Part shown: positions 3,278 through 21,226 of the stretch, piece by piece
How the letters are laid out: each line of letters opens with the position of its first letter
Numbering within the stretch: the first letter of the stretch is position 1
Made by a program: the position numbers and the translations under genes
The notes under the pieces: model-generated
What the model was told of the DNA's origin: nothing
The model's database searches: none
What the model saw: the letters and a program-made list of their open reading frames with translations, nothing else
Source of the DNA: Neophaeotheca triangularis
Taxonomy: Eukaryota
Reading direction: 5' to 3'
Assembly: GCA_054600435.1 (NCBI GenBank)
Contig: BAAIJX010000073.1
Coordinates: forward strand, 62,001-83,226
Length of the DNA stretch: 21,226 nucleotides

Positions 3278-5125
3278 TCAGCCATCACGGACGGCATTGA
3301 TGTCTGCTGTGGGGATATCAACGTAGCTGCCAAACTCGCCACCGGTATGAATGACATGCCTACCGACATTGAGAATGCTCGGTTGTCCTAGTTGCTGGAA
3401 CTCAGGCTGCTTCTGACTGTTCCAGCCTTGGACCAACAGCGTTAGTGCGTCGCCAGGCTCGTATCGGATGGCAGTGGGCCAGAATGGAATGTCTACAGGG
3501 ACCGGTTCCTTTCCGAGGAATTCGGGAAAGTCGTGAGGATACTGGTAGATGCCGTTGGTGCCTTGCTTCCGGTAGTTGCGCAAGGATACTCGAGCACGGC
3601 CGTGCGCACCAATGTAAGTATCGGAACCCAAAACCTCAATGGGGATGACCTCCGAAGTAGTACTGTTCGACTTCTGCAAATAGCAGAATAGATCCATGTC
3701 ATCGAAATCCGGAGTCGAAACGTATAGGCGCGCTGTGGCATATCCGACAAAGTTAGTGGTCTCATTGAACTTTAAGCGGAAGGAGACGGTTCCATTCGCT
3801 GTCGAATTGTATGTCGTCGAGGCGACAACTCGAGGCTGCTCTGGAGACATGATTGTGTCACCGTGGGAAGCGTCGAGAAAGTAACGATTGGTTGCTGCGC
3901 GCGGTAGAGGAAAGTCTTGCTCTGGATGGTCCACAATGGAGTCATGCCCGGGGTTCAGCACGGAGAGCCTTACACGAGCCGTGTCTTCCCAATCGTTGTC
4001 GACGTTGTTCAGGTACTTGTCGAAGAACTTGTTCAGGTCTGCAACGTGTTCGGGAGTGTAGTAATCATGCCACTCGTGTGTCAAATGAGTACGTAGCCAT
4101 TTCTTGTTCTACCTCAATCTCTCCCATCCCTGGAAAGTTCCCAAAGTATGCAGGGCATTGGTCCACGAGCCGACGACGTAGATTGGAAGATTATCGTCAA
4201 TGTTCTCGATCTTGGCAGCTTTGTCTTGCCAGTACCCGTTGATGGTCGGCTGGCGATTCACCATGTTGGCAATGTTCTCGATCTGGTTGGAGCCGTTACC
4301 GTAAAGAGAGGTAACCAATAGCTCCGTGAAGACCGAGTTTGGAATGCCGCCGCGGAAGACTAGGTCTTCGTAAAAATCCGACCATCCCTCCCAAGGAGCG
4401 ATTGCAGCTAAATGGGGAGGGCGTTCGGAAGCAATCCACCATTGGGCAACAGTCAGCCACGAGTTGCCGGTCATTCCGACCTTGCCGTTCGACCATGATT
4501 GCTGAGCAAGCCACTCGATCAGATCGTACCCATCACGCGCATCTTGTTGGCCAAACATGAGCAGGTCTCCCTCGCTATAAAAGACACCGCGAGGGTCCGG
4601 ATGAATGACAGCATAGCCTTGGTTCACCCAGTACGCAGGATTCGGGCCTTCGAATTTTTCCAAGCCGGACATCCAGTCGTATCGGACACCCATGCGATCT
4701 TCAGCCGCGTTCGGTCGCTGGAATATGTCATAATTGAAGAATCCACCTCTTTTGCCATACGGTGAATAGGCCACGATGGCGGGTATGTTCTCGGCGAAAG
4801 TGGCATTGGCGGGGCGATAGATGTCCGTGTAGATAGTCGTGCTGTCGCGGAGTTTGACTGGGACGTCTGATTCAAATAAAATGTCGCAAGGCAGCGCCGG
4901 GTATTCATCCGACACAGGCTTGGAGCCCGCAGGCAACACTTTCGAGGTGCGATTAAAGGGTGTAGCGTTGGCCTCCGGAAGTTCGTACGATGAGGTGTTC
5001 GTGAAGCTTACTGAAACTCCGTTTATTACGTCTAGCTCTATACTTGACGTCAAGGATGAGCTGTCGCCATTAATAGAAAAAGCGGCGACAGTGCTCGCTA
5101 GTTGAAGAAGCCGAGTTAAATACAT
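3278..5125 (-). pseudogene. Secreted CocE/NonD-family (peptidase S15-like) alpha/beta hydrolase with one in-frame premature stop
   Basis: ORFs 4109-5125 and 3278-4084 are in the same frame, separated only by TAG at 4111-4109 (GWERLR*NKKWLRTHLTHEWHDYY). Signal-peptide-like MYLTRLLQLASTVAA; family motifs LRDSTTIYTDIYRP, YSPYGK, GYAVIHPDPRG, DGYDLIEWLAQQSWSNGKVGMTGNSW (nucleophile Ser), PPHLAAIAPWEG; C-terminal domain with DDMDLF and HVIHTGG. 615 codons if read through. Confidence 0.9.
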
Positions 5126-10672: not shown

Positions 10673-11415
10673 ATGGGCAGCATTATCAACGCCATCAGCG
10701 TGCTGGGGACTGCTATCTCCGCATACGGTTTCGTCTCAGACTTCATCCCGGAGAGGCGCACGCAAGGCGCGACGGTGGAAATCCGCACGAGTCAAGGCAC
10801 GAACACCGCGACCGGTGCTGGAAATGCCCAAGACACCGGGGGCAGGATCAAACGAGTGTGGTACGTGACGGCGACGCTTCTCTTTCAAACCAACATGGCT
10901 TCGTTACTACAGATTGTCTGATGCCATGGCAGGGGCTACGACGCGGGGAACGCCCTCTTGGGCTTCAGCGACGGCGGCAACATTGGAGCGGGGAACAAGC
11001 GCACGTTCCAGATCGACCAAGGCAACAACCAGCAGGCGCTGTACATCAACGTTGTCGCGGACAACGATGCCATCTGCATCCCCGTCATTGGCGTCACCCA
11101 GCCGGGAGACGGGTTGTCGTATGGATGGATCGGCGACGTTTTCCAAGGCTGCGGCTTACCCTCTTACTTTGGCAACGTTGACGTCGACGGCAACGGTTAC
11201 ATGCCCCGGTGCGGATGGGTTGGTACGTTGTTTTGCCACGTCTTGCTTTGCGGCGATTGGAGAAATGCACTCACTCACACGATTCGCGGGCAGACGCCAG
11301 CCACGACAAGACGGACGCTGGCTCGTTCAAGTAGTACCTCCCGGCGTTTAGCAAACGCGATGGGGAGAACTACAGCAGGGACCCGAACTTTTACTGCAAC
11401 CCTCGCCCGGTAAGT
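10673..11415 (+). pseudogene. Uncharacterised fungal Cys-containing protein gene with a premature stop and 3' truncation by the TE block
   Basis: Exons 10673-10860, 10933-11222, 11294-11409; introns GTACGT...CTGAT...CAG and GTACGT...CTCAC...CAG, then an orphan GTAAGT donor at 11410. Product MGSIINAISVLG...RVWGYDAGNALLG...DNDAICIPVIGVTQPGDGLSYGWIGDVFQGCG...PRCGWVDASHDKTDAGSFK*YLPAFSKRDGENYSRDPNFYCNPRP with TAG at 11332-11334. Confidence 0.78.
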
Positions 11416-11424
11416 TTGCACGCG

Positions 11425-12360
11425 TACACCCTACTACCCTGCTCGGTGGTAGAACTGACTTATACCGGCAAAAAACGGTCCGTTTTACTAGCAAATTTAA
11501 ATTAGTGTTTTAGTGGTAGAACCGGGAATTTCGATATTTTAAGGTAAGGAATCGATTCCTAAGGGCTTAAATACCCTAGAAAACATATTAAAACATTAGA
11601 TTTACTTAAGTCTCTTAATAGGGTAGGGTAAAGGCCCTAGACCTTAGGATATAACCCTAATTTCTAAAAAGGGTAATTTTGTAAAATCTAAAGTTATAAT
11701 CTTCTTCTTTAGGGTCTATATAGCTACTTTATAACTTAAAAGTATAGGAATACCTAGTATAGTAATTAAATAATAGGGCTTTTAGATTAGAGTTAGAGAT
11801 ATTAAGGAACTTAGGCCTTATAAAATATAGGAGGGGTTTATACTTAATAGGAACTTTACTCTAGCCTTTTTTAGGGTTTAGGAATTCCTATACTAAGCCT
11901 ATATAAGTATTAAAGGATGTACTAAGGTTATTAAAGAATTAAATCTAGTTTAAAGTAAAGAATCTTAGGGATAACTAAAGTATTATAGGATTAATGTCTA
12001 GTATATATATGTAATAGTATTCTTAGGGTTTATATAGATCTTTAGCGATTAATAGAGTATATTAAAAGTCTCTTTATAGTAGTAGAGGCCCTTAGTAGTA
12101 CTAGTAAGACTAAATTAGAATAAGGTCTCTCTTACTAGTAAAGTACTTTAGGGACTATCTCTAGACTAGCGCTATTATATTAGACTACTACTACATTATA
12201 ATAGTATTTAAAAGGTCTTTAGGCTCCTAAGTAACTTAGCTTAAAGCTCTAGTAGTTTATTATAAGTTAAAGGGAAGTTAAGATATATAATAAATAAGGT
12301 AAAGTAGAAATAATAGGGAGTAATATATTATTATAAAGCAAATAAGATTAGGATATATAT
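11425..12360. mobile_element. Old AT-rich RIP-degraded TE relic, family unidentified
   Basis: Strong TpA excess, nearly no CpA/TpG/CpG in the core, no ORFs; begins ~15 nt into the third intron of the adjacent gene. Confidence 0.7.
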
Positions 12361-12660
12361 TGTCGAGCGGCGAGAGCACTCGAGAAGCCAGGAGACCAGT
12401 TTTACTTAGGGAGGTATTATTCATAATAGTTATAAACAATGTAGTAGGATTAGGAATCGGGTATAGTCGAGAATTAGGGATTATTCGTAATAGTTACGAA
12501 CAATGCGTTAGGGGTTAGAGATCAGTTAGGTTAGTCATAGTATATAGAGGCTAATTTAAGTAGTCGCAATTCATTCTATATATGTCTATCTAGGTAGGTG
12601 TCTAAGATGTAAGTACTAGTGTAGAGGGGAGGTATAGGTATATAAAGGGGGTAATAATAA
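12361..12660 (+). mobile_element. LTR-like fragment with an internal imperfect direct repeat
   Basis: Sharp compositional edge starting TGTCGAGC; direct repeat attattcataatagttataaacaatg (~12416) / attattcgtaatagttacgaacaatg (~12480); TATA-like TATATAGAG at 12541. Right boundary not determined. Confidence 0.4.
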
Positions 12661-12682
12661 AGCAAAAATACCGTAAAACCAG

Positions 12683-12927
12683 TATGCCCATAAATGTAGT
12701 ATAGGAGTCACTATAATATCCCTCTCTAGCTAGAAAGTCTCGTCACTCTATAGTAGCTATGCTACCCTCAAACTACTATCGAGTTCTCCTTAACCTACAT
12801 TTCCTCTATAAGCTCCTCCTATCCTACTAGTACTACTCCCCTCTTTCCTTTATCCTATAGTAGTAGAGTAGAACTAGAACTTTCCGAATAGTGTCGTGGT
12901 AACTCCTATACTACATTTATAGGCGTA
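12683..12927. repeat. 37-bp inverted repeat pair enclosing ~245 bp (MITE-like)
   Basis: 12683-12719 vs reverse complement of 12891-12927: 29/37 identical with a 19-nt exact core ATAAATGTAGTATAGGAGT; all 8 mismatches are transitions. Confidence 0.75.
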
Positions 12928-13043
12928 TATTACGATCCTATAAGGTAGTCTTATAGGTAGAGCTTATAGCGGAAGAGGAGAGATGTCGAAGAAGGCTGGT
13001 AAGGGTGTTTCCTTTATCGTAAGGATTTTAAAGATATGTGAAG

Positions 13044-13384
13044 TGTCGCTATAGACCTTTTAGTAAGATTATAACATGAGTTGAACACAAATCTCTACCT
13101 AGGAAATATCACTAGCTAAATACAAAAGAGATTCGTGTTAATCATCCTAATTAGTAGTGCTTAGTCCTATTGAGTGTCGCTAAGCAAGGAGCTACTTAGT
13201 ACTCGAGACTAATTAGTAGTGATCAGTTCAACTAAGCATTACTAAGCAAGAGGCTACTTAGTTCTTAGCATGCTTAGTTCTTAGCAAGCTCTATATACTT
13301 AGTCTCGGAGTCCTACTGTTAGCGCTTTTAGTCTTTATCTAATGATCTCTTCCTTCATGTCCTAGTTATGTGTTGTCTATAACA
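13044..13384 (-). repeat. 3' LTR of the minus-strand chromovirus
   Basis: Begins TGTTATAGAC right after the PPT, contains TATATAGAG (~13297) and short CTTAGTTCTTAGCA repeats; candidate end ...TATAGCGACA at 13044. No second LTR in the window to confirm its length. Confidence 0.6.
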
Positions 13385-13485
13385 CTATCCCTCTTCCAGC
13401 TTAGCGTCGTCTCGATGCTAATGTTATAAGTCTCGTAGCTCGCCCTACTTCTTCCTCCTTAGTTAAATCATGGTTTCCTCTTAGC

Positions 13486-14100
13486 ATGCCTAATAACTAG
13501 CCTGGCCATAGTACTATCCATCGTTGTGAATTAGCAACTTTTGTCGAAACTCATGGAAAGGATATAGTAAAGCTATATAGAACATGCTCTAAGCATAAAC
13601 ATATGTGTTAGGTCTATATTTAGTCAGGAAAGTGTAGCGAATGTCTTCGTTAGGGTTAGAGGTATAACCTCTAGGTTTCGTCATCAGAATAGGATAGGTT
13701 AAAGTAGGAGCAGACGAAACTCTAGTCATCTATTAAGGAAGCGTTCGAGGCATAACTCTCTACTCGCGTAGTAGAAGAAGAGGCTCGACGGGCTAAAAAC
13801 GCTACCTACGAGGCTTTATCTTCTACCTTTACTAAGGAATAGCGCTTACGTCGGCAACTCGATCTTCTAGAGAAACGAGAAGCAGAAGTAATAGCTATAG
13901 AGGAGGCTAGTATTAAGGCGGAAGAAGAGAAGGAGAAGGAGGGTAAGAACGCAATACTCCCTCTCGAGGATTTAGATCCTAGTCTGGGGATTATTCTTTC
14001 TCCTTCTATATAGAATGCGTTAGACAGCGGTTTTGATCTCTCGGCTAACTTCTAGAATTTTAGTACTAGCGATATTATTATAGGGCCTTCTAGTAGTTAA
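13486..14100 (+). pseudogene. Antisense extra ORF of the chromovirus: RIP-mutated Zn(II)2Cys6-like cluster, coiled coil and acidic tail (~204 codons)
   Basis: One frame from ATG 13486 to TAA 14100 with no frameshift, interrupted only by TAG/TAA. Codons at 13576 (TAT), 13585 (TGC), 13606 (TGT), 13633 (TGT), 13642 (TGT), 13663 (TAT) give C-x2-C-x6-C-x8-C-x2-C-x6-C if the two TAT were TGT. Followed by KE*RLRRQLDLLEKREAEVIAIEEASIKAEEEKEKE. Confidence 0.75.
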
Positions 14101-16984
14101 GTAGGTTGTCCTTAGGTTCCTAAGTGTTCTCGCTTATAGGATACCCTTTCCATTTTACGAGGTAGTTCTAACTATCTTTGTCTGAATCTTTTCAACCTCG
14201 TACTCGGTTTCTTCTTCTAGTAGATCATAGTAGAAGGTGTCTTAGATTAGTGTTTCGGTATCTACTAGTTCTAATAAGGATACATAGAATACTAGATAGA
14301 CTTTAGCGTCTCTTGGGAGTTAGAGGAGGTAGTTGACTTTTCCTCTTTATTCTTTAACTAGAAACGGTCTAACCTTGACATAGTCTAGTTTTCGTGTTCG
14401 TCTCCTTATCTTTAGGTTTTTCGTAAGTAAATACACCTTATCCCCCTTCTTAAGTTAAGGTGCCATTTTGGAGTCTTTATGTCTTTACGATTCGAGTCGC
14501 TACTATGACTATGTGATCTTGTCTTTCATCTGTTTATATACTTCCTATAGCTACGAAGACGTTTATAGGGCTCTTTCTACGAGCGGTCCTAGTTTTAGCT
14601 CTATAAAGGTATTCGGATCTTTTCTAAAGTTCGTGTAGAACGGAGTTATACCTGTCGTTTCTAAGGCATTGTTATTGAGTACGAGCTATACTATAGGTAA
14701 GAGTGCTACCTAATTATCCTGAGCATAATTGACGTAATGTTATAAGTACGTTTCGAGGGATTAGTTCGAGCGTTCTGTTTGTCTGTCGGTTTCTAGGTGA
14801 AATGCCATTAATAGCTTATATTTCACTCCGATTGCTAAAATTAAGGTCTTCTAGTAGTTAGATGTGAAGAGCTTATCTCTATCTATAATTAGAACTGTTA
14901 GAATGCTGTGGTATCGTACTAGTCTATTAAGAACAAGGTATCCGAGCTCTTCTATAGTGATTATCTCATTATAGGGAACGAAATGCGAATACTTCGTGAG
15001 TCTATCGACCATAACTAGAATTGAATCGTAGTCCTTACTTATTAACGGGTCCTTAGATCTTAGTAACTTAATGATAAAATCTATTATAACCTCGTTCTAT
15101 AGTAGATCTAGTAGCTCCTAGAATTGTAGGTTTCTATATTTAGCATGTCTCGAAGCTTTGTTTTATTAGTAGTTCGTACATTTCTTGATGTACTCTAAGA
15201 CCTTCTATCTCATTCTAGGGAACACGAAGTTACGTCTAATGTGTTCCACTATTCTAGCGATTCCTAGATATCTATTAGTAGGTCTATTATAGTAGTCCTA
15301 GATATACTAGTATTCTTTTTCATTTAGAACCCTGAACTTCCTATATTCGACAGGGAATTCTTTGATGTCATCCCTAAGTACTCGTAGTACTAAGTTAAAT
15401 TCCTAAGGGTTAGCGCTTAGGCTTCTATCCTTATTAACTTTCAGTATATAGTGTTACTATAGAAGGTGTCCTTCTATGTAGTCGCTTCTTCTACTTAGCG
15501 TGTCAGTATGCCTATTGTCCTTCCTAGGAGTATAGACTATGTCGAACTTGTATTGTCCGAGTAGCTCTAACTATCTACATTGTCGGCATAACAGTTCCTT
15601 AGTAGTTGTGAAATATTGTAGGTTCTTATGATCCGAGTAAATAGTCAGTCTAGTTACTCCTTCACAGTACACTCTCTAGTATCGTAATGCTATAACGATT
15701 ATGAGTAGTTCTTTATCGTAGATCTCGTAGTTTTGTTCTACTAGTGACATCTTCCTTAAGAAGTAAGCGATAGGGTATCGTTTGCTTTTAACCTCTTATG
15801 TAAGGTAAGCTCCTATTACTCTATCGGATGTATCGGTTTCGATTTAGATAGGTCTCTTAGGGTTAAACATCCTTAGCGTAAGGGTAGTTGTACATGACTC
15901 CTTAAGCTTATCGAAGGATTATTGTTAAATCTTTCCCTATATGAATGGTGTGTCCTTCTTTATAAGGTTAGTTAGAGGCATAGCGAGCCTTAAGTAATCC
16001 TACATGAATTTCCGATTGTAGTTAGCTAATCCAAGGAATGCTTAGATGTCTTTAACTGACTTGGGTGTCGGCCATTCCTTAATCGATTAGGTTTTCTTCG
16101 GGTCTATTCGGATCCTAGTAGTGCTAATTATAAAGCCTAGAAAGTCGACTTCCTTCTTATAGAACTCGTATTTCTCTAGTACTGTTCTGAAGTCTACTTT
16201 ATCGAGTCGTTCGAATACTATGTGTACGTCCTTAGTATACTATTCTCGTGATCCTTTCGTGAAGACTAGTATATCGTCGATATAGGCGATAATAGTGATA
16301 TCAAGTAGGTCTCGTAGGATGTTATTAACGAGTTGTTAACAGGTTGCTAGGGCATTCGTAAGTCCTATAGGCATAACCTAGAATTCGTAAAGTCCGTAGC
16401 GTATTCGAAAAGCTGTTTTCTACTCTTCCCCCCTTACCATTCTAACTAAGTAGAATGCATCTCGAAGATCGATTTTGGTGAACTAGTATGAACTAGTGAG
16501 TCGATCTCTTATCTCGTCGATGTTAGGTAGTAGATAACGGTTTTTAGTGGTAATCGCATTAAGTCGTCTGAAATCAATAACCATTCGTAGTTTTCCTCCT
16601 TTCTTCGGAATGAAAAACGGTAGTGAAGCGGCTAATAAAGTGGAGGGTCGAATCTATCCCTTCTTCATTTTTTTATCTAGCTATCGTCGTTACTCTTCGA
16701 GCTCTTTTTCGGATAGCGCGTAAAGTGGCCCCTATAGTATCTTTATACCGGGCTAAATGTCGATTCGGTAGTCCTATAGTTAATGTCTAGGTAGAGTGGC
16801 TACTCCTTCCTCTTCCTAGAAAAGGCGCTTCTATTTCCTGAATTCTCTAGGGATATCTAAAGGTACGTGACTTCCTTCCTCAACTCTTACCTATTAGTCC
16901 GTTTAGGCTAGTTCAGTACCTATAGAGTCCGATCTAATTCGTATTAGTATCATAGTCGATTGGCGATACGTTTTATTGATCTAC
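14045..16984 (-). pseudogene. pol: pol remnant (RT, RNase H, integrase, chromodomain) of the chromovirus
   Basis: RT IIAYIDDILVF (YIDD 16284-16273); RNase H ETDTSD (~15840); integrase ETDRQTER (~14790); chromodomain EYEVEKI / YLVKWKGYPISENT*EPKDNL (~14205-14100). Many TAG/TAA stops. Confidence 0.92.
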
Positions 16985-17207
16985 TATCACGACCGCGGCG
17001 CTAGCAGGACATCGGCGGCCTAAGCTACGGAGCAGCTCGGGAGTGCCAAGCGCACACACTACGAGAGTATATGAGATGGCTAACAGTGAAGTCTCCTGTC
17101 TGCCATCGAATAGTTTCTATATCAAAGGACTGTTACCGTTATTACCATTATTACGTTCCGCCCTCGCTATACCGTGATCCCGACCGAGTTATAGTCTCGG
17201 TCTTACA
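16985..17207 (+). repeat. 5' LTR (223 bp)
   Basis: Starts TATCACG (TG in the homologous copy at 5446, so probably TGTCACG originally) and ends GGTCTTACA; left boundary fixed by alignment to the 5446 copy; TATA-like TATATGAG at 17068. Confidence 0.82.
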
Positions 17208-17210
17208 ATT

Positions 17211-17219
17211 CTATTCGAT
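17211..17219 (+). promoter_or_regulatory. Self-priming-type primer binding site
   Basis: CTATTCGAT, 3 nt after the LTR end, is the exact reverse complement of ATCGAATAG at 17105-17113 inside the LTR; there is no TGG-type tRNA PBS. Confidence 0.65.
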
Positions 17220-17256
17220 CACAGAACCTTTTCAGGTTAAGATTCGCTTAGACATC

Positions 17257-18411
17257 ATGGTACTATCGCGCTCGCTACGCCCTCGGGTTGACGACGCTGA
17301 CCTAGCGGACTCCCCTAACACTATGACCGGAGTCAACACCCCGTAAGAACAAGAAGAGGCAGCGACGGACCAATACACGGTCCTTACTGCCGCTATCGCG
17401 GAACTCCGACAACAATTGGCAGAGCGTATAGCGCCTGTTCAGCGAGCCACTAATGGAGCGACGGTCCCCCGCGACGAGTCCGAAAGAGGACATATCGAAC
17501 CGGAGGACCCGGCAGACATTGCCCCTGCCCTAGTAGTACGCAAGTGGACGGTAGACGAAGATCTACCCGCCGGCATAATAATGAAGGAGCGAAAGTCTCA
17601 CATCGATATCGAGAAAGCTTTTCGCTCGGCCGAACCAGCGGTTTATAGGAGTCACCCTAACCTCCTAAAAGCATAGACGTTCATCTAGCAATGTGAGCGT
17701 GTGTTTAAGACGTACCCTTATGTTTACTTTTATTAGTACGAGCGTGTCTAGTACGCCGCGGGCCGCCTATGCGGCCGCGTCGGCTAGAACTAGGAGAGCA
17801 AAGAATCACGACTCGAACGCGAAGAGATGAAATGGCCTATGTTTAAAGAATGGCTACTAGATCAGATCCTCGACCCCGAAAACCGCGCCATGAACATGGC
17901 GTTTCGAGGCTTCCGACACGTGTAGGGACCGACCTAATCTATTCACGACTACCTCTCGCACGTTGAAGACTCTCTCCGCGAGGCCGACGTCGCCCCGCTG
18001 CCGGAGTATACGCTCCTAACCCTTATCAAGACAGGTTTGCGGGAGAATCTCAAGGCTAAGCTGAATGCCTAGCTGACAGTGCCGGATAACCGCCACGACC
18101 TCGTCGCGCTTTGTACGCGCCTCGACGATGCGAGCCGTAGCGGCCGGGACACTAGAGGCGAGACAGCGGACAAGCCACGCAAGACCGACTTAAGAGGTTC
18201 CGGCTATAGGAAAAGAGAACAAAACCAGAGTATAAGCGATAACAACTCCAAACTGCGCCGCTAGCGTACCGATAGAACACTAGCGACTAGTGTGAACCGC
18301 ATAGGTACGATTAACGGTGGCGAACGAAACAAAGCCCTCGAAGAAAACCTCTGTTTCAAGTGCGGCAGTAAAGGCCACTGGCAAGAAAATTGCTGAAAGG
18401 GAAAAGCTTAG
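17257..18411 (+). pseudogene. gag: gag remnant
   Basis: One frame from ATG 17257 with several TAA/TAG/TGA stops; WPMFKEWLLDQILDPENR capsid-like segment; zinc knuckle CFKCGSKGHWQENC (~18352-18393). Confidence 0.9.
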
Positions 18412-18450
18412 CCCTAGGTCATTCAATTGTTAGCCTTAAAGGCTTAGGGC
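18399..18450 (+). promoter_or_regulatory. Putative -1 programmed ribosomal frameshift signal
   Basis: G GGA AAA (18399-18405) in X XXY YYZ phase of gag; 5-nt spacer; stem GCCCTAGG (18411-18418) pairing with CTTAGGGC (18443-18450); pol is in the -1 frame. Confidence 0.75.
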
Positions 18451-21106
18451 GATAAGTAGGCGCTACGCTGACGGAGCGCCTATGGGCTGTCGTAAAGATA
18501 TGCGATCGAACCTGCGACGGGCTACGTTTCGAGGCCCGCGGGCTTATCGACACGGGAGCGCATTACAATGTCATCTCGGAAGACATCGCGGTCCGGTATA
18601 ACCTGCCGATAAAGGGCGACCGGATTCGTAGGCTACGAGCCTTCGGCGACGTCGAAGCCCCGATAGTAGGCCGATGTCGACTCTATACTGAAGTCGCTAA
18701 TTTAGACGGTATGGTTCAGACTATTCTGCAAATGTTCGAAGTAGTGAACTAGAAGGATTACGAAATGATTCTTGGAATGCCTTAGATCCGATCCGTAAAA
18801 GCACAGCTTGATTTCGCGTCGCCGCTAGTGTAGTGGCGCTATAGCGGCGTGTATAACAAAGAAGAAGTTGAAATCATCGAGGCCGAAGAACTAGCCTAAG
18901 ATATTGACGGTGGAGCACCTATCCTCGCCGTCAGCGCAGAAGACCTACGCGGGGCCCCGGCGGAGCTATAGGTGCCTAAGTGGTTAGCGGAGTACGCCGA
19001 GGTGTTTAAATCGGAGAAGGCGAAAGAGTTACCTCCGCATATGCTTCATGACCACTATGTCGAACTGGTCGAGGGAAAACAACCTCCTAGTAGACTAATC
19101 TACCCATGTTCCGAGCCGGAGCTCGAGGAAATGTAGTCGTAGATTAATAACCTGCTCGCGACGGACCGCATCGAGCCTAGTACTAGCCCTGCCAGCGCAC
19201 CGTTACTGTTCGTTAAGAAGAAAAACGGCAAACTCTACATGTGCGTCGATTACCGAGGCTTGAACGAAATCACTATTAAGAACAAGCATCCTTTACCGCT
19301 TATTGGTGAACTCTTAGATAGGGTCCGCGGATCAACGTGGTTTTCGAAAATCGACCTAGTCGAAGCATACTACCGTTTACGCATCGCCTAGGGCGACGAG
19401 TGGAAGACGGCGTTCCGCTATTAGTACGGCCATTTCCAATACAAGGTCATGCCTTTTAGACTCGCTAACGTACCGGCGTCGTTTCAGGCCTTTATCAATA
19501 AGGTACTTATAGAGCTAGTTAACCACTACTACGTGGTATACATGGATGACGTTCTCATCTATTCCCGCACCGAAGTAGAACATCGCGAACACGTTCGAGC
19601 GGTCTACTATCGGCTCGCCGACGCCGAGCTGTATGCTAGTCTCGAGAAATGCGAATTCATGGTCCGAGAGATTAGATTCCTCGGTTTCGTCATTAACTCC
19701 ACTAGAGTAGCGATAGAGCCCCCATGGGTAGCCGCAGTCTAAGATTAGCTGATACTAAAGTCCTTAAAAGAACTCTAAGTGTTCCTAGGATTCGCGAATT
19801 TCTATCGTCGCTTTATCGAGGGATATACAAAGATCACCGCTCCCCTTACAGACCGCCTATAGCACAGCGGCGGTGAATGGTAGCCACTAAGTGAAGATGC
19901 CCAAAAATCCTTTGAAAGGTTAAAGCACAGCTTCATTTCAGCACTAGTGCTACGGCACTTTAACGCTACGCTAGAGACCCGCCTTGAGACCGATACATCA
20001 GGATACGCATTAGGAGGCATCCTCGCGTAGAAGCACTCGGACACGCTATAGTATCCGGTCGTATATTACTCTAAGAAGCTTAAAGGGCTAGAGTTACGAT
20101 ATCTAGTGCACGATCAGGAACTACTCGCCATCGTCGAGGCGACGCGCTAGTGGCGGCACTACATATTGTCGGCTAAGAGTAAAGTTCAGGTGCTTACAGA
20201 TCACAACAATCTAAAGTACTTCCTATCGACAAAGAAATTGTCGGGCCGCTAAGCGCGCGCTGCGGAAGAGCTGTCGCAATACGACATCGAGATTACATAC
20301 CGTGAAGGTAAATCAAACCCCGGAGCAGACGGGCTCTCGCGCCGTCCTAACATGGAGGCCGATAGAGAATTAAGTGGGGCGGAAATGCTACCTACATTGA
20401 CTAGGCTTTTCGCTCCCCTAGCGGGCCCCTATAAGGCCGCCGAAGTTCCGGCGAGTAGCCACACGATGGCCGCCGAAGATAGAGCAGAGATCCTGTCTAT
20501 GTCGCCGGGGTACGTAGCACCGGTAAACCACCGGGCGTTAGCCGCCTCGCTAGCGGGCTACACGGTGGCTGCCGGAGACACCGGTCCTCTAAACAATAAG
20601 CTTTAGAGTAATGATACTGTACACACTAAGCGAAAGCTCTAAGGGGGAGGTAAACCAAACCTGACTAGCTCCGTCGCTATAGTAGCGCCGACCTATCATG
20701 ACCCTATAGGTAAGTAGCTAGGTATACTCGCTATCACTAAGCTAGACATTAGAGAGCCTAACGTGGCGGTGGACCGAATCGACCTTAGAGCGGATGTGTT
20801 GCGCGTATAGTAGGGAGACCCCTTTGCTAAACGCATTCGTAAAGAGATCGACGAGGGACAGCACTATAGAGATGCTAACGGCGCCGCGCCTACGTGGTCG
20901 GTTAGTTTTATGGGACTTCTTAAGATTAATGGAAAGGTGTATATGCCGCCGGTAGAAAGCCTACAGGCCGCCGTGCTAAGCTACTGCCACGAGGACCTAT
21001 TAGTGGGACACCCGGGGGTAGGGAAGACTAAAGCCGTTTTCCACAAGGAGTTTTGGTGGTCTAAGTGGACTAAGGATGTCGAAGAGTATGTCCTTAGGTG
21101 TGACAA
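18399..21106 (+). pseudogene. pol: pol remnant (protease, RT, RNase H, integrase N-terminal zinc-binding domain), truncated
   Basis: LIDTGAHYNVIS (DTG 18549-18557), VVYMDDVLIYS (YMDD 19539-19550), LETDTSGYALGG, ADGLSRRP, and CHEDLLVGHPG...DVEEYVLRCDK ending at the telomere; motifs checked fall in one frame, with many nonsense codons. Confidence 0.95.
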
Positions 21107-21226
21107 AGGGTTAGGGTTAGGGTTAGGGTTAGGGTTAGGGTTAGGGTTAGGGTTAGGGTTAGGGTTAGGGTTAGGGTTAGGGTTAGGGTTAGGGTTAGGG
21201 TTAGGGTTAGGGTTAGGGTTAGGGTT
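21107..21226 (+). repeat. Telomeric repeat tract (TTAGGG)n
   Basis: AGGG + 19 perfect TTAGGG + TT to the window end, with the G-rich strand running 5'->3' toward the end. Confidence 0.98.

Follow-up and report, generated by a model that had tools for sequence, protein, structure and literature searches.

A RIP-degraded antisense third gene of a fungal chromovirus lineage and its possible role as a zinc-cluster regulator

We analyzed a 21,226-nucleotide stretch of the Neophaeotheca triangularis genome (GenBank assembly GCA_054600435.1, contig BAAIJX010000073.1, positions 62,001 to 83,226 of the forward strand), hereafter the window, in which an open reading frame (ORF) runs antisense to a degraded Ty3/Gypsy retrotransposon with a chromodomain. 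This ORF is a copy, killed by repeat-induced point mutation (RIP), of a genuine third gene of a fungal chromovirus lineage. The gene lies on the opposite strand between the stop of pol and the polypurine tract (PPT), abutting pol or overlapping it by up to ~100 nt, and purifying selection acts on it, with a conservation as strong as that of pol itself. Its protein combines a basic N-terminal part with six cysteines, the predicted fold of which superposes on solved Zn2Cys6 domains, with a predicted acidic helix of ~75 residues and an acidic tail rich in Trp and Phe. On balance, we lean towards the view that the stretch is a dead copy of a chromovirus gene for an antisense zinc-cluster transcription regulator, likely acting on the element's own long terminal repeat (LTR).

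Results

A RIP-killed copy of an intact gene

The ORF occupies positions 13486-14100 of the plus strand in frame 1, with an ATG at 13486, a TAA at 14098-14100, and 204 codons before the stop. A first-pass annotation made from the sequence had described a frame of about 204 codons, free of frameshifts, between the chromodomain and the PPT; the annotation made no mention of the 13 in-frame internal stops that the frame contains (12 TAG and one TAA). Read with X at the stops, the ORF had one match among 5.8e9 proteins, an intact protein of 185 amino acids (P0001; E 9.8e-38) that is collinear with it over the whole length. Aligned pairwise, the ORF and P0001 stay in a single frame throughout, with two indels that preserve it and 45% identity (BLASTP E 1e-46), bearing out the frame as described. 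The parts of the ORF, and of the element that carries it, are listed here with the evidence for each.

13486..14100, plus strand: antisense accessory ORF degraded by RIP, with 204 codons before its terminal stop and 13 stops within (translation; collinear match to P0001; table against 39 homologues)
13576..13665, plus strand: six-cysteine cluster region, codons 31-60, with four cysteines kept and Cys31 and Cys60 now Tyr (TAT) by G-to-A RIP (alignments)
13681..13971, plus strand: region matching the family's long acidic helix (residues 66-142 of P0001), with a 14-codon in-frame insertion (AlphaFold2 model, pairwise alignment)
13972..14097, plus strand: acidic, aromatic C-terminal tail with the motif LSPSTWxAxEGxPxEFWE, both conserved Trp codons now TAG (alignment)
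13388..13400, minus strand: polypurine tract GGAAGAGGGA (sequence; same PPT-TAG/TGG-TGTTA junction in the related loci L001, L004, L009, and L012)
12928..13384, minus strand: 3' LTR, TGTTATA...CGTAATA, RIP-changed from TGTTACG...CGTAACA (sequence, direct repeat, LTR anatomy of relatives)
14072..14185, minus strand: chromodomain at the pol C-terminus, sharing sequence with the antisense ORF at the latter's 3' end (Pfam Chromo, E 1.7e-08, 34.7 bits)
14186..16986, minus strand: RIP-degraded pol remnant with reverse transcriptase (RT), RNase H, integrase H2C2, and Tf2-type SH3 domains (Pfam on the read-through frame, ORF map)

Two TAT codons had been taken at first pass for RIP-changed TGT, and the homologues agree. 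The codon at 13576 is Cys in all 39 aligned homologues and that at 13663 in 38 of them; reading both as Cys gives C-x2-C-x6-C-x8-C-x2-C-x6-C. Three of the stops also stand at conserved residues, codons 58, 176, and 190 being Gln in 37, Trp in 39, and Trp in 37 of the 39 homologues. Each change at the two Tyr codons and these three stops is a one-step C-to-T or G-to-A substitution. Within the ORF, the RIP indices were 1.67 for TpA/ApT and 0.53 for (CpA+TpG)/(ApC+GpT), compared with 0.63-0.72 and 1.11-1.20 in flanking host DNA. Transitions in repeats, a high TpA/ApT, and a low (CpA+TpG)/(ApC+GpT) are the marks of RIP, and the window copy carries them.

Other copies from the same organism were sampled as contigs of two public runs (X1 and X2), placed on the window at 80% likeness; they form hundreds of diverged fragments, and the individual pieces each cover part of the ORF, none spanning the whole. 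Transitions accounted for 198 of the 207 places that differ in run X1 and 227 of 236 in run X2, with A or T in the window and G or C in the other copies at most of them. Among the differences listed within the ORF, other copies have G at 13664 (TAT to TGT, Tyr60 to Cys), C at 13657 and 13672 (TAG to CAG, stop to Gln), and G at 13601 (His to Arg) and 13666 (Asn to Asp). All five run toward the family consensus. The window copy, being dead, can itself perform none of the functions proposed below.

One X1 contig joins 13411 directly to 14072 and leaves out the 660 nt in which nearly all of the antisense ORF lies; its short flank measures 38 nt. It may represent a copy without the ORF or a copy in which this segment was replaced.

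The element itself occupies the minus strand of an AT-rich block at ~11.4-17.0 kb, where GC content is 0.30-0.40 as compared with 0.52-0.60 in the surroundings. Reading the pol frame through its stops from 16986 down to ~14230 gave Pfam matches to RT, RNase H, the integrase zinc-binding domain, and a Tf2-type SH3 domain, the RT, RNase H, and integrase together spanning 14269-16611. The chromodomain at 14072-14185 falls in a frame neighboring the main pol frame, and the order of RT, RNase H, integrase, and a C-terminal chromodomain is that of a chromovirus. Because the Chromo match begins at 14072, the last ~29 nt of the ORF overlap pol, as the first-pass annotation had it. The LTR starts with TGTTATA at 13384 (reading downwards), and its junction with the PPT corresponds to PPT/TGTTACGA in intact relatives. 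Sequence copies diverge from the window below ~12930-12935, with loose contig ends, near the LTR boundary. Neither gag, a primer-binding site (PBS), nor a 5' LTR was found in the window's minus-strand element, which is 5'-truncated at ~16986.

The gene keeps its place in related elements

Scanning metagenome contigs with the family alignment yielded 30 loci, and genomic context could be judged in the 22 having at least 300 bp downstream. In 21 of these, the C-terminal integrase/chromodomain part of pol lies on the opposite strand, tail-to-tail with the ORF, which upholds the earlier proposal of an element-borne gene. The exception (L030) is the most distant member, with 39% identity. The end of the ORF match lay -215 to +84 bp from pol across the 21 loci, an interval that narrows to -103 to +84 bp when one locus is set aside. 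Four loci with shorter flanks showed the same tail-to-tail arrangement. According to Pfam, the long loci L005 and L025 are complete chromoviruses with gag, protease, RT, RNase H, integrase, and Chromo, a CCHC zinc knuckle being found only in L005. The frame is full-length and uninterrupted in 18 of the 30 loci, including four (L002-L005) that are nearly the same element; of the rest, ten have a broken frame, one has a shortened frame, and in one the frame reaches past the end of the contig.

Seven contigs had identical ends, located at the contig termini in six and inset in one. Since their ends are identical, these are circular assembly products that join the end of pol, the ORF, one LTR, and gag. 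On the sense strand they read, in order, the reverse complement of the ORF's ATG, 84-112 nt, the PPT, the LTR, a PBS-like site, and gag. The same distance was obtained across 11 loci, where 84-112 nt of the element separate the ATG from the 3' LTR edge. LTRs of these relatives follow the plan TGTTACGA ... TATATAG ... GTGTTCAAC ... CA.

An out-of-frame ATG precedes the ORF start by 10-16 nt in most relatives, though not all (L004, L005, L007, L009, L017, L018, L025, and others), within the motif CGTCATGG..., and the window has it at 13470-13472 of the plus strand. This ATG may open a short upstream ORF. Short metagenome contigs of 1.0-1.4 kb were considered as possible antisense transcripts and rejected, having no poly(A) ends and no consistent termini.

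Purifying selection as strong as on pol

The first-pass annotation had named neutral evolution of the segment as an outcome that would refute it, and the segment does not evolve neutrally. Among 15 intact ORFs, the ratio of nonsynonymous to synonymous substitution rates (dN/dS) was 0.07-0.23 with a median of 0.14, based on the 25 of 105 pairs with a usable dS (0.05-2.5). Three control pairs had an unsaturated dS; in these the ratio was 0.08-0.10 for the ORF frame, 0.17-0.23 for the antisense frame with which it has wobble positions in common, and 1.1-3.7 for the four remaining frames. Pol segments of the same elements gave 0.10-0.18 (10 of 13 comparisons with finite dS). Protein distances in the ORF and the pol C-terminus rose together across nine loci (Spearman 0.675, reached by 22 of 2000 permutations), six further loci having been left out for stops or short frames. 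Mean protein distance was 0.36 for the ORF and 0.43 for the pol C-terminus, the ORF being if anything the better conserved.

These data bear on the idea that the frame is not a gene at all, whether a by-product of sense-strand constraint (a pol extension or cis-acting RNA) or a host fragment captured by one copy. A minus-strand frame of 150-225 codons does overlap the ORF in relatives (157-225 codons in L002, L003, L004, L005, L007, L008, L012, and L017), and its dN/dS is also low at 0.15-0.35. A low value is expected there because the wobble positions are shared with the plus-strand ORF, and it is the plus-strand ORF that has the lowest dN/dS in all three pairs computable for both frames. Moreover, synonymous sites of the ORF evolve freely (dS 0.46-2.5), its six cysteines are invariant, 21 of 22 loci have it in the same place and direction, and it has hundreds of intact homologues. 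The overlapping minus-strand frame most likely stays open as a side effect of codon usage in the ORF, and we consider it very improbable that the ORF is anything other than a gene. A captured host gene and a chance frame were each rejected as candidates on dN/dS, locus context, and cysteine conservation.

A family of short proteins with six conserved cysteines

A word search with P0001 returned 163 proteins of 101-324 amino acids at E<=0.01. With phmmer we obtained 522 clusters (50% identity) at E<=1e-3, 130 at E<=1e-10, and 17 at E<=1e-30. Long fused forms do not dominate the family, since 147 of the best 150 phmmer clusters are 47-245 amino acids long, the three exceptions having 309, 388, and 514. 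Named members come from the Dothideomycetes (Aureobasidium, Elsinoe, Cercospora, Bathelium, Sporormia, and Friedmanniomyces) and from one lecanoromycete, Lasallia pustulata; the Aureobasidium member is annotated in a strain where it is intact. Intact homologues exist, and a typical family protein has ~190 amino acids. UniRef names members as 'Zn(2)-C6 fungal-type domain-containing protein'. In ESM Atlas, the whole protein falls in unannotated Ascomycota clusters, and residues 22-72 give nothing above 0.82.

Of 68 aligned members, whose identities go as low as 24%, 65 keep all six cysteines. The N-terminal consensus of the family is MPK..SST.RR..LA.FI...G..MV..C..C.K..RVCKVHVRSGKCSEC.RRGQRCDV.VT.SE..RL, after which come a long helix with the block RLRQQMDLLDRRA.EAIAVEE and the tail LSPSTW.A.EG.P.EFWE. 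The most conserved segment of the helix is RLRQQMDLLDRRAxEAIAVEE. Up to the last cysteine the protein is basic, with a median net charge of +9 and a positive charge in 68 of 68 members. Across the same 68, the helix has a median net charge of -6, and the tail -6 with a median of five aromatic residues.

The AlphaFold2 model of P0001 (mean pLDDT 79) predicts helices at residues 9-23, 32-36, 51-56, and 66-142, followed by a short tail helix. The two short helices at 32-36 and 51-56 each begin at a CxxC. Confidence is highest in the long helix, where block means of pLDDT are mostly 94-99 and the end blocks have 79 and 86. The charged, coiled-coil-like stretch and acidic tail proposed at first pass are matched by a long helix in the model and by an acidic, aromatic tail in the family.

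A probable divergent zinc-cluster-like domain

The first-pass annotation went further and assigned the six-cysteine part to the GAL4-type Zn2Cys6 class. Spacing and, more weakly, the predicted fold speak for this assignment. The family's C-x2-C-x6-C-x8-C-x2-C-x6-C agrees with the PF00172 pattern C-x2-C-x6-C-x5-12-C-x2-C-x6-8-C. In a Foldseek search with the model, 14 of the top 15 rows were Zn2Cys6 DNA-binding domains (Hap1, Leu3, Pho7, Gal4, Put3, and Ppr1), all weak at E 0.5-1.8. VIA-align superposed the model on Leu3 with a root-mean-square deviation of 1.7 Å over 36 residues and on LAC9 with 1.7 Å over 33 of 33. The protein shares with Gal4, Hap1, Leu3, Put3, Ppr1, and Pho7 the six-cysteine spacing and an acidic tail, and its model would add to these the short helices that start at each CxxC and a further helix behind the cluster.

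Several results weigh against this assignment. The Zn_clus profile search that had been suggested stayed under the gathering cut-off: Pfam Zn_clus was never significant, with 9 of 40 members matching at E<=1 and a best E of 0.011, and P0001 itself scored 13.2 bits (E 0.097), short of the cut-off of 21 bits. Pfam on the window ORF, read with X at its stops, returned only a sub-threshold DUF3247 match and no Zn_clus match. A family profile searched against the PDB found no Zn2Cys6 chain by sequence, only coiled-coil noise at E>=0.05. Canonical Zn2Cys6 domains have basic residues at +3/+4 or +4/+6 and a Pro before the fourth cysteine. Here the basic residues between the second and third cysteines are at +2 and +5, and a Gly precedes the fourth. 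The helix shows only one clean hydrophobic stripe. Beyond the domain, the protein differs from known fungal Zn2Cys6 factors in being ~190 amino acids long and encoded by a retrotransposon, and none of the members searched matched any other Pfam family. Taken together, the protein probably carries a divergent zinc-cluster-like domain homologous to the fungal Zn2Cys6 family, its membership falling short of demonstrated.

These same results invite an alternative, that this is a real element gene but not one for a transcription factor. The zinc domain would instead bind element RNA or cDNA, or a host protein, and serve packaging, nuclear import, integration targeting, or particle assembly, roles that are suspected for some plant accessory ORFs. 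Its failure of sequence-level Zn_clus membership would fit such a role, as would the helix segment RLRQQMDLLDRRAxEAIAVEE, which resembles a specific interaction surface more than a plain coiled coil, and the lack of enrichment of canonical CGG pairs in U3 described below. Yet every one of the best fold matches is a Zn2Cys6 domain that binds DNA and has a helix behind it, Hap1, Leu3, and Put3 being examples, and a basic domain joined to an acidic-aromatic tail is the layout of an activator. We consider this alternative unlikely.

Candidate targets in the LTR

We examined the U3 regions of ten related LTRs for possible binding sites of a zinc-cluster regulator. They hold 4-7 copies of a heptamer, CTGAGCA/CTGATCA in one group of elements and CAGAGCA in another. 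CACGTG occurs in nine of the ten, and the TATATA box of the LTR is palindromic. The window LTR keeps its heptamer repeats, RIP-changed, at 13147-13265. A further result against a GAL4-type protein acting here is that paired CGG triplets were not enriched in the ten U3 regions, with 3-5 per class as opposed to ~9 in shuffles (CGG/CCG pairs counted at spacings of 0-15 nt). Therefore, if the LTR is the target, the target site is not canonical. Relative to the canonical pattern, basic residues in the cluster's first half are displaced, which would fit an altered DNA specificity.

The mechanism we have in mind for a zinc-cluster regulator is as follows. Judging from the arrangement of the sequence, the mRNA would start in the 3' LTR or within ~100 nt of it, proceed antisense to pol, and end inside the chromodomain coding region. 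The protein would bind two zinc ions, pair through its helix, and bind DNA. It would regulate transcription, most likely at the element's own LTR, with the acidic tail recruiting the transcription machinery. Its role as a regulator, antisense transcription from the LTR, and the DNA targets are points that we infer.

A more specific version proposes that an entire lineage of fungal chromoviruses has a private transcription circuit, in which a dimeric, antisense-encoded zinc-cluster factor reads the heptamers of its own U3, rather than CGG pairs, and its acidic tail switches a bidirectional LTR promoter. The brtn gene of the fungal element Boty, considered below, is maybe the same device. We regard this version as conceivable but doubtful.

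The protein could alternatively counter silencing or interfere with the host, binding its own element or competing with host zinc-cluster factors against heterochromatin, RNA silencing, or RIP. In this it would resemble the VANC proteins of plant VANDAL transposons. RIP operates in the genomes that harbor these elements and has hit the window copy heavily. Sense and antisense transcripts running towards each other would form more than 600 nt of double-stranded RNA, making some management of silencing plausible. Set against this, the window copy was not shielded from RIP, and the protein has no likeness to known silencing suppressors in Pfam or ESM Atlas. Such a role seems to us quite improbable, and regulation of the LTR by a zinc-cluster protein remains our preferred explanation.

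The LTRs provided a separate observation about reverse transcription. About 30 nt past the TATATAG, they contain GTGTTCAA, which is exactly reverse-complementary to TTGAACAC of the PBS-like site that immediately precedes gag. This pairing is seen across the set of L004, L001, L009, L012, L007, L025, and L017, and in a second clade of elements both sides have changed together, to GTGCTCAA with TTGAGCAC. The window 3' LTR keeps GTGTTCAAC intact at 13080-13088 of the minus strand. Compensatory change between the LTR and the PBS-like site fits Tf1-type self-priming of reverse transcription.

Comparison with known systems

The ORF has two of the attributes of an antisense accessory ORF, lying on the opposite strand between the end of pol and the PPT/3' LTR and being conserved similarly to pol. 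Its closest precedent, already on record though not mentioned in the first-pass annotation, is the antisense gene brtn of Boty, a fungal Gypsy element from Botrytis and Sclerotinia (passages on brtn in PMC7264820, PMC8365987, and PMC4227169). In those passages, Boty is likewise a fungal Ty3/Gypsy element with a chromodomain and an extra opposite-strand gene between pol and the 3' LTR, and the function of this gene is undescribed. No passage on brtn in these three papers assigns it a zinc-cluster domain. The two are likened by description and not by sequence, and named members of the present family are Dothideomycetes and one lecanoromycete rather than Leotiomycetes.

Accessory ORFs that run antisense between pol and the 3' LTR are also described, in passages of PMC7264820, for the plant Gypsy elements Grande1, RIRE2, Retand, and PvRetro13. 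They share with the present ORF its place, orientation, presence in most copies, and conservation like that of other element proteins. They differ in belonging to another kingdom and to other element lineages, and no DNA-binding fold is assigned to them in the same passages, whereas the predicted fold here points to a zinc-cluster regulator.

In a survey of chromoviruses in fungi from 2010, one figure legend notes an 'additional ORF with unknown function' (PMC2864245). Passages of fungal transposable element surveys do not mention a zinc-cluster ORF. Our full-text searches returned no publication linking a zinc-cluster ORF to a fungal Gypsy or LTR retrotransposon, subscription papers and Repbase/Dfam being outside their reach. 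The ancestral Ty5 LTR is modeled in a 2025 preprint, in the passages available, as under the control of basic helix-loop-helix and zinc-cluster host factors, which is of interest beside the CACGTG sites in U3 but is a different matter.

Other features of the window

Beyond the 3' LTR, positions 11400-12927 are the most AT-rich part of the window, with a GC content of 0.33 and a (CpA+TpG)/(ApC+GpT) of 0.29. This is presumably older RIPed repeat DNA. A second Gypsy element at 17071-21226 of the plus strand begins where the first breaks off; it has far fewer mutations and a GC content of 0.52. Its gag region has a CCHC-type zinc-knuckle match under the Pfam cut-off (CFKCGSKGHWQENC, ~18350), followed by RT, RNase H, and the integrase zinc domain. 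A tract of a two-base repeat (read as GLGLGL...) closes the window.

A host gene lies at 3278-5125 of the minus strand as two exon-like ORFs, encoding an X-Pro dipeptidyl-peptidase of the S15 family/CocE-NonD hydrolase. Over the part compared, its product matches a protein of the dothideomycete Neophaeotheca triangularis with 100% identity, and most of its named next-best relatives are bacterial.

Discussion

LTR retrotransposons are usually taken to rely wholly on host transcription factors. The family described here is a conserved, selected, element-encoded protein built like a DNA-binding activator, and it is found in hundreds of element families across the Dothideomycetes and at least one lichen fungus. 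The structural interpretation put forward by the first-pass annotation was largely borne out, and the functional part stands as a well-founded hypothesis. The window copy is a relic, and its value lies in the family that it revealed.

A viral parallel can be drawn for the proposed function. HBZ of human T-cell leukemia virus type 1, a complex retrovirus of humans, is a dimerizing basic leucine zipper factor that is antisense-encoded, expressed from the 3' LTR, and modulates sense transcription. The antisense ORF protein would be comparable to HBZ by analogy of function, without a relation in sequence or fold. Were the private circuit to prove true, these elements would be a retrotransposon counterpart of complex retroviruses with regulators of the Tax/HBZ type.

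There is also a consequence for annotation. Such ORFs are deposited as 'hypothetical' or as host proteins with a 'Zn(2)-C6 domain', inflating counts of fungal transcription factors. If the gene does encode a zinc-cluster regulator, these elements would have gained a regulatory input of their own, and the fungal antisense accessory ORF would receive its first concrete, testable function. It would also constitute a compact natural DNA-binding module together with its matching promoter.

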